A DNA stretch of 60,142 nucleotides. It comes from Candidatus Moraniibacteriota bacterium (GTDB lineage Bacteria; Patescibacteriota; Minisyncoccia; Moranbacterales; UBA1568). Positions 9,181 through 24,552 of the stretch are shown piece after piece. The stretch is taken from contig CAVZUR010000001.1 in assembly GCA_963778555.1 (NCBI GenBank), positions 1-60,142 on the forward strand, written 5' to 3'. The notes under the pieces were generated by a model. That model saw only the letters and a program-made list of their open reading frames with translations. It made no database searches and had not been told where the DNA came from. The number at the start of each line of letters is the position of its first letter. The stretch's first letter is position 1. Position numbers and translations under genes: made by a program.

Positions 9181-10993
9181 ACTCCTCTGGAGCCGGTATA
9201 CCGAAAATCAATTAGTGTCCTTTAATCTCCATCTCGGATTGCTCCCGACGCTCGTCGCCGTCTTCGCGCTCACGAGCCTGCCCTTCATTCTCATCGGGCA
9301 GAAAATGGCTCGGTTGATGCGGCAATTTCCGCCGCTCACGGCGTATGGCCTCGATATCCTCGGTGCGCTCATGGGTATCGGCGCCTTTAGTCTCCTGTCG
9401 TTCGCCAGCGGCGCTCTCGGTTCACCACTGGCCTGGTTTCTGGTGTCGGGCAGCCTCAGCTTGTGGCTCATCCGAGAGCATCAGCAGTTCCTGCTCGTGG
9501 GGGCGGTCTGTGTCGTCGCGGCGGTCATTATCATATACGCCGTTTCCCGGAATGAGATCTGGTCGCCGTATTATAGTGTCAAAGTTGCTGATGCTGCGGC
9601 TGATCATTCGATTCGGCTCTACGTGAACAATTTCTTTTTCCAGAAAGCCGTCGATTTCCGTTCGGATTCTGAAGCTAGAAAAAAATACGAATTTCCCTAT
9701 CTGTTGAAGTCCCCACAGAGCGTGCTCATCCTCGGGGCGGGGACGGGGAACGACGTGGCGATGGCAGGGCTGCGCGGAGTGCCCGACATCGATGCGGTGG
9801 AGCTCGATCCGGTCATCGCCGACATCGGCCGGCAGCGGCATCCGAACCGTCCCTATCAGAATCCCAATGTCCATCTCTTCATCGACGACGCGCGGTCGTT
9901 CCTGAAGAAGAGCGACAAGCAATATGACATGATCGTCCTCGGGACGCTCGATTCGCACGCTTTGTTGTCGGCACGGTCGACCGTGCGGCTCGATAATTTC
10001 GTCTACACAACTGAGGCCCTCGAGAGCATCCAGGAACACCTGAACCCGGACGGCATCGTGGTCCTCATGTTTTCGGTACCGGAACCGTGGCTGAGGGACA
10101 AAATAATCAAGAGCGTCCAACGAGTCTTTCCTGAGCCGGAACCGACCATCCAGATCGCGAAAAACGCCTATCTCTTCAACTTGATGATACTCGCCGGTCC
10201 GGGACTGACCGACATCCGGCGGCAGTATCCGGTAGAGATCGCGCCGACAGAGCCGATTCCGGAGAGCGTCTTCAGCACCCGCAATCTGTCGACCGATGAT
10301 TGGCCGTATCTGTATCTGCGCGAACACGCGATCCCTCGCTATTATCTCGAGGCCATCGGCCTCCTCTTGGCCCTGGCCCTGTATGCCATCGTCTTTCTCT
10401 ACCGAAAGAACATCATCGCCCTGCCCGATTGGAGCGGCTTGAATTTTTTCTGTCTCGGGGCGGCGTTCCTCTTGCTCGAAACGAAAAGCATCACGACGCT
10501 CTCGCTCCTCTATGGCTCGACCTGGTTCGTCAACGCATTCGTCTTCGGCGGCATCCTCACGATGGTGCTCCTGGCGAACATTGTCGTCACCCGGGTACCA
10601 ATCCGGCGGATCGAGACGGTCTATCTTCTCCTGGGGCTGTCTTTGGCGCTGAATTACTTCCTGCCCGTCTCGATGTTCCTCGGCCTGGAGTTCTGGCTGC
10701 GTTCCGGACTGTCGGCCCTCGTCGTGGCGCTCCCCATCTTTTTCGCCTCCATCATCTTTTCCACCCATTTCCGGTCAGTCACGAGCCTCTCTGTCCTGTA
10801 CGGACTCAACCTGATGGGCGCGGTCGTGGGCGGTTTCCTTGAATACAGCTCGATGCTGTTCGGCCTGAGCGCCCTCTATATCCTGGCCGGCATACTGTAC
10901 GCCCTCTCGTACTATGCCTTCACTCAAACGTCGCAGAGTAAAACGAGCGATGGCAAGCCAATCGATATCCCAGCGGCACATGAATCCCTATGA
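9113..10993 (+). CDS. Spermidine synthase-like (class I SAM-fold) domain flanked by TM segments, fragment 2
   Basis: VLILGAGTGNDVAMAG...AVELDPVIADIGR...NVHLFIDDARSFLKKSDKQYDMIVLG, with TM helices on both sides. Confidence 0.8.
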   Translation: MGVSIAIIGFRQIETIVPNLSNELLWSRYTENQLVSFNLHLGLLPTLVAVFALTSLPFILIGQKMARLMRQFPPLTAYGLDILGALMGIGAFSLLSFASGALGSPLAWFLVSGSLSLWLIREHQQFLLVGAVCVVAAVIIIYAVSRNEIWSPYYSVKVADAAADHSIRLYVNNFFFQKAVDFRSDSEARKKYEFPYLLKSPQSVLILGAGTGNDVAMAGLRGVPDIDAVELDPVIADIGRQRHPNRPYQNPNVHLFIDDARSFLKKSDKQYDMIVLGTLDSHALLSARSTVRLDNFVYTTEALESIQEHLNPDGIVVLMFSVPEPWLRDKIIKSVQRVFPEPEPTIQIAKNAYLFNLMILAGPGLTDIRRQYPVEIAPTEPIPESVFSTRNLSTDDWPYLYLREHAIPRYYLEAIGLLLALALYAIVFLYRKNIIALPDWSGLNFFCLGAAFLLLETKSITTLSLLYGSTWFVNAFVFGGILTMVLLANIVVTRVPIRRIETVYLLLGLSLALNYFLPVSMFLGLEFWLRSGLSALVVALPIFFASIIFSTHFRSVTSLSVLYGLNLMGAVVGGFLEYSSMLFGLSALYILAGILYALSYYAFTQTSQSKTSDGKPIDIPAAHESL

Positions 10994-11700
10994 AAAAACT
11001 CTCCATCCTCATCCCGGCGTACAATGAAGAGAAGACGATTCTGGAGATTTTGAAACGTATCGATGCGGCCCCCCTTAGCATCGGGAAAGAGATTATCATC
11101 GTGGACGACGGCTCGACCGACGGGACGCGGTCCATGTCTCGCGACGCTTGACCCCGATCGCTACCGGATCATCTTGAAGGAGAAGAACGGAGGCAAGGGA
11201 TCATGCCTCAAGGCGGGGATTCAAGCGGCGACCGGGGACATCGTCATTTTTCAGGACGCGGACTTGGAGTATGATCCGGCCGATTACCAAGCGATGATAC
11301 TGCCAATTCTAGACGGTCGGACCGAGGCGGTCTTGGGGGTGAGGGTGGGGAGCGGTCGAGAAATGATGAGCCGGAAGACATTTTACTATTGGGTGAGTTG
11401 GCTGGGCGGGGAACTCATCACCGGGACGACCAATCTGCTCTATTCGAATCACGCGATCGAGTATGAGGGTTGCTACAAGGCATTCACGAAGCAGGCTTTG
11501 GCTTCGATCACCATCACCGCTCGCATCTGAGGTTTGAAATAGACAATGAGATCGGTGTGCAAACTCCTCAAAAAAGGCAAACCGGACCATCGATGTTCCC
11601 ATCCGCTATACCCCGCGCAGCTATGAAGCAGGCAAGCATATCCGCTGGACTGACGGCCTCAAGATCCTCTGGACATCATCAAATATCGTTTTGTCGACTA
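10990..11700 (+). pseudogene. GT2 glycosyltransferase (polyprenol-phosphate sugar transferase-like), several frame disruptions
   Basis: MKKLSILIPAYNEEKTI...IIVDDGSTDGT, then ...GDIVIFQDADLEYDP..., then IDVPIRYTPRSYEAGKHIRWTDGLKILW, read in three different frames. The start overlaps the upstream stop (ATGA). Confidence 0.75.
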
Positions 11701-18920: not shown

Positions 18921-19283
18921 ATGAGTACGACGACCGAAGACATCAAAGCCCGCCTCAATATCGTCGAGGTGGTGGGCCAATACGTGAAGCTCCAGAAAGC
19001 GGGGAGCGCGTGGAAGGCGAATTGCCCCTTCCATCAGGAGAAGACGCCCTCCTTCAACGTGAACGAGGAGCGCAATATGTGGCATTGCTTCGGCTGCGGC
19101 AAAGGCGGTGATGTGTTCGCGTTCATCATGGAGATCGAGGGGCTGGAATTCGTCGAAGCGCTGAAACTCTTGGCTGGGAAAGCGGGGGTGGAACTGCCCG
19201 AGTATCATGGCAGCGGCCGGGCAGCCGGCGGAGACGAAAGATCGGAGCTTGGAGATCCTCGAGCTCAGCATGAAATTTTATGA
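18921..19283 (+). CDS. dnaG: DNA primase DnaG, N-terminal zinc-finger fragment
   Basis: [34 protein letters not shown]. Frame is lost around 19205-19235. Confidence 0.9.
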
Positions 19284-20724
19284 AAAGCAGCTTTGGGAAA
19301 GCGAACGCGGAAAAGCGATGCTCGGGTATCTCCATGAGCGGGGACTGACTGACGACTCCATCCGGACCTATCGGCTCGGCTATGCGCCGGACGGCTGGGA
19401 ACACATCACGAAATTTCTGGTGAGTCGTGGATTCCGAAGCGAGGAGCTCGAAGGCTGCGGGCTGTCGCTCAAGGGGAAAGAAGGCCGTGGATTCTATGAC
19501 CGCTTCCGCGATCGCATCATGTTTCCGATCGGCGATATCCTCGGCCGTCCGATCGGCTACTCGGCTCGCGTCGCGCCGGGCGGCGATGAGTCGCAGGCGA
19601 AATACGTCAATACGCCCGAGACGCATCTCTACCACAAAAGCCGCGCGCTCTACGGGCTCGCCTTGGCCAAAGCTTCGATCAAGGAAACGGGTCGCGCCAT
19701 TCTCGTCGAAGGCAATATGGATGTCATCGCGCTCCACCAAGCGGGACTGCCGAATGTGGTCGCGGTATCAGGGACAGCCCTGACCGCCGAGCAGCTGGCG
19801 ATTCTGAAACGGTATGGGAAGAAATTGGCACTGTTCTTCGATATGGACAAAGCCGGACAAGCGGCAGCTTGGAAGAGCGCCCTCGCTGCGTTCGACCTGG
19901 ATTTCAGTGTCGAAGCGGTCGCGCTCACGAGCGGCAAAGACGCGGCTGATATGAATCGCGAGCATCCCGAACTCTTGCGACAGGCGGTCGCGGAGGCCCA
20001 GCCAGCGATGCAGTATTTCCTGAACTCACTCCTCAGTACGGTCGATGCTCAAGCCCAGGAAGGCAAACGGGAAATCGTCGAACGCTACGCCGAGCTATTG
20101 GCAGCCGTCTCAAACACACTCGACCGAGCTCACTGGACCAAGGTACTGGCGGAGGCAATCGGCGCGGATGCGAAAGTCGTCCAGACGACGGTCGAAAAAG
20201 CATTCCGCTCGCTCCATCGACCAGATCATTTCATCGAAAGCCGTCCAACAGCGGCCTTTCTTCCGAAGACTTTTGGTCGGCGTTCCGAAGTCTTGCGTGA
20301 GGGCCTCATCGGACTCATGCTCGCGAGCCCGATAGCGCGCGAAGTCGTCGCCCTCGAACAAGACGTCGCCGTAACGGATTTTCTCTCACGGCATCCGATT
20401 GCGTTCTTCATCCGCAATAATCCGACTGATCCGATTGCCGCGATTGAGGACCGGACGCTTCAGGCGGTGGCCAGCGATATCTTGTTTCGGACGCTCGACA
20501 TCCCGAGCCTACGGATGGCTGAGGAGAATCGGGAAGCGGTGACCGCTAGCATTGCGGGCGAATACCTTCGGGATCTGCGCTCTGAACTCCATGAAAAGGA
20601 TGAGCGGATCGACCTGGGGCGAGCGCTCGAGGCGGCTCGGCAGTCCGGGGATAAGACCGAGGAACGCCGTCTCTTGGAAGCGTTTGCCCGCCTCACCCGG
20701 AATGACGCTTCCCAGAACGGGTGA
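19207..20724 (+). CDS. dnaG: DNA primase DnaG, RNA polymerase/TOPRIM and C-terminal part
   Basis: [21 protein letters not shown] and [16 protein letters not shown] (TOPRIM). Confidence 0.9.
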
Positions 20725-20770: not shown

Positions 20771-22088
20771 ATGGCCAAAAAACCGCTGAAAAAGAAGAAG
20801 CCGGCGCCCAAGAAGAAGGCTTCCCAAAAGCGAGCGGTGAAGAAACACGTCTCGAAAAAGCCGGCCCGCAAGCTCGCGCAGCGCAAACATCCGAAACAGC
20901 GGTCCAAGAAGCCCGTATCCTCCCGGAAGAAGAGCATTCAGCGGAAGGCGCCCCACAAGCGCGGCGCGCCGTCACGACGATCGTCGCATGAAGAGTTGAA
21001 AAAGAATGCTTTCGATGAACTTCTCGCTCGCGGCAAGCAGCGCGGCTTTGTCACGGAAGATGAAATCATCCACATCCTGCCGGACATCGAACAGGACCTC
21101 GACAATCTCGAGAACCTGTATGAGCAGCTTGAGACCTCGGGTATTCGTATCGTCGGTTCGGAGGAAATGCTGAAAGTCGGCGAAGAGAAAGAAGAGGTTC
21201 CCGTAAAGGGCGCGAAGAAGAAAGACAAGATGATGGATCTCGGTGAGAGCGACGACGCTTCGGACCTGGTCCAGATGTACCTGAAGGAAATTGGCCGCGT
21301 TACGCTGCTCACCGGCGATGAAGAGGTGCAAGCTCGCCAAGGCAATCGAGAAAGGGGACTTGGTTGCCAAGCAGCGGCTGACCGAAGCGAACCTCCGGCT
21401 CGTCGTGTCCATCGCCAAAAAATATGTCGGCCGTTCGCACAACCTCTCACTCCTCGATCTCATCCAAGAGGGGAATATCGGGTTGTTCCGCGCCGTGGAG
21501 AAATTCGACTACCGCAAGGGCTACAAGTTCTCGACCTATGCCACCTGGTGGATCCGCCAGGCGATCACCCGCGCGCTGGCCGACCAGTCCCGCACCATCC
21601 GCATCCCGGTGCACATGGTGGAGACGATCAATAAATACGCCCAGGTGACCCGCCGCCTGGTCCAGGAGCTCGGCCGCGAGCCGCTCGCCGGAAGAGATCG
21701 CCGCAGAAATGGATCTGGAAGTGGACAAGATCCGCCATATCCAGAAGATCTCCCAGGAAACCGTGTCGCTCGAGACGTCGGTCGGTGACAATGATGACGA
21801 TTCGGTGCTCGGCGATTTCATCGAAGATACGGAAACCGTCATGCCGCATCAGATCGGCGGCGCGCAAGCTCTTGAAGTCCCACATCGCGCGATATCCTCG
21901 ACGAGCTCACTCCGCGCGAGCAGAAGATTCTCCGCATCCGTTTCGGCCTCGAAGACGGCGTGACCCACACTCTCGAAGAAGTCGGCCAGGAATTCGGCGT
22001 GACGCGCGAGCGCATCCGGCAGATCGAGGCCAAGGCGCTCGAGAAGATCCGCGAACACTCAAGCCTGAAAAAGCTCCGCGACTACTAG
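20771..22088 (+). pseudogene. rpoD: RNA polymerase sigma-70 factor RpoD with a Lys-rich N-terminal tail; at least 4 frame disruptions
   Basis: Region 1.2/2 ([54 protein letters not shown]), region 3 and region 4 ([15 protein letters not shown]...[18 protein letters not shown]) lie in successive frames. Shifts are near 21325, 21690, 21850 and 21890. Stop at 22086-22088. Confidence 0.9.
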
Positions 22089-24030: not shown

Positions 24031-24313
24031 TCCGGCGTAGCTCAGCGGTAGAGCAGGTGACTGTGAACCGCATAAAACGCAGCTCTTGGTGGAAACGCCA
24101 AGATGAACTTTTCGGGATAACGGTGAAGGCTAAGTCCGTAAGGATATGCTAATACCGTGGGAACCCTCATCAATAGGATGAGGGGCGCCGTAGAGACTAG
24201 ATACCGAAACACCTACGTCCGAAAGGATATGGTGAAGATATAGTCCACGCGTCTTGGAAACAAGAGGATAAAGTGTAATCACTTGGTCACAGGTTCGAAT
24301 CCTGTCGCCGGAG
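24031..24313 (+). tRNA. tRNA, most likely Asn(GUU), interrupted by a group I intron in the anticodon loop
   Basis: Acceptor TCCGGCG / CGCCGGA, D arm GCTC-AGCGGTA-GAGC, anticodon stem GGTGA / TCACT, T arm ACAGG-TTCGAAT-CCTGT, discriminator G. Joining 24064 to 24276 gives the loop CUGUUAA. CCA is not encoded. Confidence 0.8.
24065..24275 (+). ncRNA. Group I intron (IC3-like), 211 nt, no ORF
   Basis: 5' exon ends in U, which pairs as U.G with GCAG at 24079-24082 (P1). GAAA-capped hairpins at 24085-24102 and 24252-24265. GTAGAGACTAGA motif at 24190-24201. Intron ends in G. Confidence 0.8.
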
Positions 24314-24327
24314 CAGAGTAGGATAGA

Positions 24328-24352
24328 CCGAGGAAAAAACCTCGGCTTTTCC
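24328..24352 (+). terminator. Terminator hairpin after the tRNA
   Basis: CCGAGG aaaaaa CCTCGG followed by CTTTTCC. Confidence 0.7.
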
Positions 24353-24552
24353 TTTGTTAGCGAGGCTAATGGCAGGTTCGAACGCTTTGTTTTCGGAGCG
24401 TGCTAGGAGTAGGTAGTCTTTGAAGGCCTCAATCGATTTATTGTTTCTAACAGTGGCTTTTTGGCCGAAATAGTTAGGTTCGAACCAAATGTGTGGAGTG
24501 GTAGTTTTTCTTTACCGCAATAAACGTTCGAAGCCCGAGCCAGTGGGCCGTC

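Follow-up and report, generated by a model that had tools for sequence, protein, structure and literature searches.

Two tRNA halves separated by 211 nt lie at positions 24031–24313 of the window, as we call the whole 60,142-nt stretch of DNA that was analysed, which comes from a Moranbacteria (CPR/Patescibacteria) genome. We consider it very probable that this locus is a tRNA-Asn(GUU) gene carrying a compact, ORF-less, Azoarcus-like group I intron between U35 and U36 (Table 1). A preliminary description of the locus had already placed the two halves on either side of 24065–24275 and called the insert ORF-less, and indeed no ORF fits within the 211 nt. CCA is absent from the coding sequence of the 3' exon. 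A terminator-like hairpin begins 15 nt past the 3' end of the tRNA, and a scan for sigma-70 promoters upstream of the gene found nothing. No other tRNA was found in the 60-kb window by default ARAGORN.

Table 1. Features of the intron-bearing tRNA-Asn locus (positions in the window).
Feature	Positions	Strand	Basis
5' exon of tRNA-Asn(GUU): acceptor 5' strand, D arm, anticodon stem 5' strand, C32 U33 G34 U35; last base U-1 (U24064)	24031–24064	+	ARAGORN on joined exons; 34/34 identical to intronless tRNA-Asn of L003, L006
Group I intron, ORF-less, 211 nt, G+1 to omega-G (G24275)	24065–24275	+	RF00028; model R1; intronless orthologues
P1, 5 bp: 24061–24065 (CUGUG) with 24078–24082 (CGCAG)	24061–24082	+	Helix map; 82 homologues
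P2, 8 bp; L2 GAAA tetraloop 24092–24095	24084–24103	+	Helix map, MFE fold
P3 5' strand UUUCGG (partner 24204–24209)	24110–24115	+	Helix map, MFE fold
P4 (24120–24125 with 24153–24158) around P5 (24129–24149)	24120–24158	+	Helix map, alignment, MFE fold
P6 (GG/CC) and P6a	24159–24189	+	Helix map, alignment, MFE fold
J6/7 (GUA), P7 5' strand (G24193, bulged A24194, GACUA 24195–24199), J7/3 (GAUA)	24190–24203	+	Helix map, alignment
P3 3' strand CCGAAA	24204–24209	+	Helix map, 82-homologue alignment
P8, receptor-like motif CCUACG...UAUGG; GAAA loop 24221–24224	24210–24234	+	Helix map, alignment, MFE fold
J8/7 (AAGAUA) and P7 3' strand (UAGUCC, 24241–24246)	24235–24246	+	Helix map, alignment
P9; L9 GAAA tetraloop 24257–24260	24250–24267	+	Helix map, alignment, MFE fold
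3' exon of tRNA-Asn(GUU): U36 A37 A38, anticodon stem 3' strand, variable loop, T arm, acceptor 3' strand, discriminator G73	24276–24313	+	ARAGORN on joined exons; 38/38 identical to L003, L006
Intrinsic-terminator-like hairpin CCGAGG-AAAAAA-CCUCGG (24328–24345) and T-rich tail	24328–24355	+	Consensus match only

Two neighbouring genes show apparent frameshifts in the window assembly. The rpoD gene (20771–22085) has at least four frame changes relative to the intact 436-aa RpoD of a related genome (L003), with 87–98% amino-acid identity in its conserved parts, and in dnaG (18921–20724) the Zn-finger ORF (18921–19283) lies in another frame than the remainder (19207–20724). These breaks look like assembly indel errors rather than pseudogenes. 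Because of them, single-base errors are possible in the intron sequence as well.

The exon/intron boundaries and the identity of the gene are established by the joined exons and by intronless relatives. When the two exons are joined, ARAGORN reports a 73-nt tRNA-Asn(GUU) with anticodon loop CUGUUAA, U1-A72 and G73. The loop, U1-A72 and G73 are as given in the preliminary description, in which the host was called probably Asn-GUU. We take U1-A72 and G73 to be tRNA-Asn features under established identity rules, with E. coli tRNA-Asn as reference. The syntenic intronless tRNA-Asn(GUU) genes of L003 and L006 are 72 nt long and 100% identical to exon 1 plus exon 2 of the window; the tRNA-Asn genes of L002, L011 and L012 are also uninterrupted. 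Intronless orthologues read GACTGTTAATC, a sequence restored only by cuts at 24064/24065 and 24275/24276 and no longer restored when the 211-nt deletion is moved by -2, -1 or +1 nt. Since the joined exons equal the intronless syntenic orthologues, the splice sites are fixed at U24064/G24065 and G24275/U24276, and the intron ends in G24275, where it had first been placed. The same frame sets U-1 opposite G24079 as a wobble pair. The predicted ligated-exon junction is GACUGUUAAUC (72 nt of joined exons), and the uninterrupted sequence of an empty site is CTGTTAATC.

The evidence for a group I intron in the 211-nt insert is far beyond chance. A cmsearch with RF00028, proposed as a check in the preliminary description, gave a significant match over 24061–24267, the only one in the window (49.0 bits; E 1.9e-9 for the full 60 kb and 1.4e-11 when searched locally), although its score is 1 bit short of the gathering score of 50 bits. 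Rfam at gathering thresholds returned no match in the window, and ARAGORN in default mode returned no tRNA in its 60 kb; both blanks stem from limits of the tools, not from absence of the feature. Bacterial sequences are absent from the Rfam group I seed (Williams, bioRxiv 2020, doi 10.1101/2020.01.27.920355). We built a covariance model, R1, from 49 other CPR tRNA introns, with the window and its three nearest relatives excluded. R1 omits P1 and the pseudoknotted P7, since the 5' exon/P1 strand was misaligned in the MAFFT alignment on which it is based (A2). This model matched the window intron at 208.7 bits (E about 2.5e-63) over model positions 1–217 of 217, and the intron aligns to it at full length with no odd indels.

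The fold and its conservation can be followed helix by helix. Every proposed pair from P1 to P9 forms in the window, and when the window-derived structure was applied to 82 ORF-less homologues, 91.2% of cells were paired, compared with 38–43% when the 3' partners were slid. Double-sided changes in these homologues numbered 946, compared with 299 in shuffles, and the helices that covary in the family are P2, P3, P5, P6a, P8 and P9. An unconstrained MFE fold (z = -4.55) recovers P2–P6a, P8 and P9. The insert thus combines a P1 with a U·G wobble and guide, an omega-G, and a P3–P9 core with a P3/P7 pseudoknot, consistent with its initial description as a group I intron.

In P1, the pairing of CUGU with the internal guide sequence GCAG and the U24064·G24079 wobble at the 5' splice site stand as first described, but the helix has 5 bp rather than 4: the extra +1 pair, G24065-C24078, covaries in the homologues (AU 43, CG 20, GC 13). 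The U·G pair is present in 81 of the 82. Two hairpins with GAAA loops had been likened to P2 (24085–24102) and P9 (24252–24265), and both are present. P2 is one pair longer than that and shows double-sided changes at 8/8 pairs in the family; P9 has the additional pair C24250-G24267 and is followed by an 8-nt tail ending in omega-G24275, the last intron base and a conserved G in alignment A1. The 8-bp hairpin noticed at 24164–24184 is P6a. In the core, P3 is paired in 100% of cells, with covariation in 4/6 pairs across the 82 homologues, and P7, invariant in the same sequences, crosses P3 to form the pseudoknot. The string GTAGAGACTAGA (24190–24201) had been assigned to J8/7-P7 by its likeness to the Azoarcus and cyanobacterial tRNA introns. 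It does match the Azoarcus seed row GUAGAGACUAGAC, but the element that it spans is J6/7, the P7 5' strand and J7/3, not J8/7. Inspection of the sequence shows an 11-nt-receptor-like motif (GCUAAG...UAUGC) in P5, whose loop, at 24138–24141, is GUAA. The P5 and P8 motifs are near-canonical 11-nt GAAA receptors, and L2 and L9 are both GAAA. A P10 helix with the 3' exon could not be read convincingly from the sequence.

Is the host nevertheless a different tRNA? ARAGORN in intron mode, another check proposed at the outset, removes the same length of 211 nt from the window but sets the sites two bases upstream (24063–24273), which yields the loop CUUGUAA and the label tRNA-Thr(UGU). The program calls most Asn homologues likewise, and in this frame, too, the intron would follow a U and end in G. 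Its product, however, would mismatch the intronless orthologues, and U24062 would pair with A24081, without the U·G wobble that nearly all homologues keep. All 44 homologous hosts listed begin with U and end in GGAG, and U1-A72 and G73 presumably mark a tRNA-Asn. We rejected the threonine identity against the orthologues and the U·G rule, and regard it as extremely unlikely.

Two further readings accept the asparagine identity and question the locus itself. The insertion could be decayed and no longer spliced, leaving a tRNA pseudogene while a second gene supplies tRNA-Asn, a reading that gains from the frameshifted essential genes in the window assembly. Yet all core helices and conserved junctions are intact, as the full-length R1 match reflects, the exons are identical to functional-looking orthologues, a terminator-like hairpin stands 3' of the gene, and more than 90 genomes have retained the family, with compensatory changes; we find decay very unlikely. 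We give practically no credence to an assembly chimera, in which the insertion would not be a true genomic arrangement, since homologous introns occupy the identical site in at least 44 independently assembled genomes, including the syntenic L010, and both junctions give a perfect tRNA. The one point in its favour is a Logan contig (L001, run ERR11593397) with an identical upstream M15 peptidase gene, which ends at its position 1122, exactly at the last exon-1 base (…GACTGT), and so implies a branch in the assembly graph. Such a branch is expected where intron-plus and intron-minus alleles, alleles with another intron, or related species share an exon, and the end of L001 could reflect any of these.

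How would the group I intron of this tRNA-Asn gene be removed? By homology with characterised group I introns, we propose that it splices itself in vivo. Transcription of the pre-tRNA would run to the terminator-like hairpin, and the intron would fold into P1–P9 with the P3/P7 pseudoknot as its core; docking of L2 and L9, both GAAA loops, in the receptor-like motifs of P8 and P5 is probable. An external guanosine would attack after U24064, held in P1 by its wobble with G24079 of the guide GCAG. Omega-G24275 would then occupy the predicted G-binding site in P7, whereupon the 3'-OH left on U24064 would attack before U24276. Ligation of the exons would create the anticodon loop CUGUUAA and a mature tRNA-Asn, to which CCA would be added post-transcriptionally.

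By DnaG, the relatives of the window are Candidatus Moraniibacteriota MAGs, and the flanking sequences include the syntenic tRNA gene. The closest by DnaG identity (L002, 78%; L003, 76%; L006, 71%) are all without the intron, and L008 and L009 also read through the tRNA-Asn junction before their contigs end. The intron of L010 (DnaG 56%) is of the same family as the window intron and 76.5% identical to it. In L004 and L007, exactly the same Asn site is taken by a group I intron of another, unrelated lineage, 550–552 nt long (9734–10283 in L004 and 9476–10027 in L007); the L007 intron scores 76.6 bits against RF00028, and that of L004 was matched only with model R1, at about 81 bits. The L007-type intron sequence at the exon junction is CTGTGGAGAC. 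Both introns contain a 107-aa ORF with the pattern CxxC...HH...CxxCH; Pfam gave no match to the L007 ORF at E<=1e-3, so that the label 'HNH-like' describes the motif pattern alone. Immediately downstream of the intron-bearing tRNA-Asn of L007, a 497-aa ORF with a serine-recombinase-like N-terminus occupies 10039–11532 on the minus strand, a possible sign that an element has integrated at this tRNA gene.

The introns of L004 and L007 are 88.8% identical, far above the identity of their hosts (55% for the DnaG proteins and about 56% for upstream DNA), which points to horizontal transfer of this type of intron. A second signal concerns the window intron itself. The window shares with L004 and L007, at 100% identity, the 29 nt that follow the P7 3' strand (24247–24275, comprising P9 and the 3' tail), whereas the best match to them among the 98 other family members listed is 83% and P9 is otherwise hypervariable in the family. 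This identical 3' end suggests recombination, or module exchange, between the two intron lineages at P9 and the 3' tail. As with homing introns, the presence of the window intron is patchy, with empty sites among the relatives, but it encodes no endonuclease.

Group I introns of bacterial tRNAs have classically been known from Leu(UAA), fMet, Ile(CAU) and Arg(CCU) hosts. A later bioinformatic survey, of which a splicing assay was not part, extended the hosts to 21 host/site classes, and its seed alignment contains Pam37.Asn.4Ug (Williams, 2020). The window intron falls in this Asn.4Ug class: its host is tRNA-Asn(GUU), it follows loop nucleotide 4 (CUGU/intron/UAA, between U35 and U36), and it shares U-1 and omega-G. 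The Pam37 seed itself differs, being of another lineage, 276 nt long with extra helices, and 68% identical over aligned positions. The closest published sequences are the seeds Mba143.Tyr.4Ug (79.9% identity) and Pgr210.Thr.2Ug (75.6%), which share with the window GGGAUAACGGUGAA, GG-GAA...GCG-CC, GUAGAGACUAGAUACC, AAGAUAUAGUCCA and the CUGU/GCAG P1, and differ in that their hosts are labelled Tyr or Thr. The Pgr210 seed starts cuguc...ggcag, and the 2-nt ambiguity seen in the window may also lie behind its label 'Thr.2Ug'. Group I introns are frequent in CPR tRNAs (Lui et al., 2021). A keyword search of the literature for tRNA-Asn with a group I intron returned organellar or unrelated papers only.

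How close is the window intron to the Azoarcus type? The intron of Azoarcus sp. BH72 pre-tRNA-Ile(CAU), of class IC3, and those of cyanobacterial tRNA-Leu(UAA) are likewise compact anticodon-loop ribozymes of ~200 nt, with P2 and no P2.1, GAAA loops on P2 and P9, and receptors of the CCUAAG/UAUGG type in P8 and P5, and the J6/7-P7 string GUAGAGACUAGA is identical in Azoarcus and the window. In contrast, the host and loop position are different, and the window intron has J3/4 GAUAA, P4 ACGGUG, P6 GG/CC and J8/7 AAGAUA where the Azoarcus/tRNA-Leu type has AAA, UUCGGCG, GCC/GGU and AAGGCA, respectively; overall, it is identical to the Azoarcus seed at about 65% of positions and to the tRNA-Leu seed at about 60%. 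The preliminary description had named the IC3 class. The compact IC3 architecture is there (a lone P2, absence of P5abc, and GNRA loops L2 and L9 with P8 and P5 receptors), and its loop/receptor pairs resemble those of Azoarcus, but these core differences leave the IC3 assignment supported in part only. Self-splicing and crystal structures are on record for the Azoarcus intron; for the window intron, self-splicing is a prediction.

When species-representative genomes were scanned for exact copies of the 18-nt core CCGTAGAGACTAGATACC, at least 120 loci came up, almost all of them in CPR/Patescibacteria MAGs. Among the 98 split tRNAs listed, at least 44 are Asn, at least 28 Asp, at least 18 Tyr and at least 1 His, all interrupted at loop position 4 (after CUGU); at least 2 are Leu, interrupted at loop position 3. 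The window intron belongs to this large CPR family, whose guide reads CUGU and which interrupts the GUN-anticodon tRNAs (Asn, Asp, Tyr and His) at one and the same loop position. The novelty implied for an Asn host in the preliminary description was therefore overstated: with at least 44 further Asn examples among public CPR genomes and the Asn.4Ug class already catalogued (Williams, 2020), an Asn host is common in CPR genomes, not exceptional.

Does the family move between host tRNAs? A neighbour-joining tree implied 13 changes of host tRNA, compared with a mean of 36 in shuffles, and for 67 of 80 introns the nearest neighbour lies in the same host tRNA; both results have weak margins, and they weakly suggest host-tRNA switching within the family. 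Two MAGs each carry family introns in two different tRNAs, Asn and Asp in JAGWIS01 (L096/L097) and Asn and Tyr in JACRID01 (L037/L124), and these copies group with introns from the same host tRNA in other genomes, not with each other. It is conceivable that one promiscuous CPR lineage, with a guide GCAG that reads the CUGU of Asn, Asp, Tyr and His tRNAs, has hopped repeatedly and swaps modules with endonuclease-bearing introns at the same site. The module swap is proposed because of the identical 29-nt P9/3' tail, and the proposal as a whole is tentative, falling in our judgement somewhat short of an even chance. If it were true, CPR tRNA genes would be a natural system in which guide-directed spread, by reverse splicing, could be set against protein-directed spread, by homing.

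The same 18-nt core also occurs in seven viral-labelled IMG/VR contigs (L146–L152). Five of these seven have it within split tRNAs, labelled by ARAGORN as Ile(UAU) in two cases and as Leu(UAA), Gln(UUG) and a suppressor-like 'Stop'(UUA) in one case each; none is Asn, and the labels are based on unrefined splice sites.

The feature is real but already catalogued and abundant in CPR, and its main consequence is for annotation; knowledge of group I introns is unchanged. By its authors' account, tRNAscan-SE 2.0 was not designed for group I introns (tRNAscan-SE 2.0 paper). Most members of the family with an Asn(GUU) host (L026–L145) receive the label Thr(tgt) from ARAGORN in intron mode, because CT[GT]…G[TG]TAA permits two frames with U-1 and omega-G. 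With the gene missed or mislabelled by standard tools in this way, a genome of this kind would be scored as being without tRNA-Asn, with an effect on estimates of completeness and translation capacity in CPR. The window adds one well-delimited member to a large, experimentally unstudied family, and with it come empty sites as natural controls and an intron that competes for that site. A different kind of label is affected in several TPA MAGs among L004–L013, L032, L067, L128, L133 and others: titles such as 'uncultured Bdellovibrionales', 'Gammaproteobacteria' and 'Saccharibacteria' look like placeholder taxonomy, and these MAGs have DnaG proteins 55–78% identical to Moraniibacteriota, or CPR-type tRNA introns.
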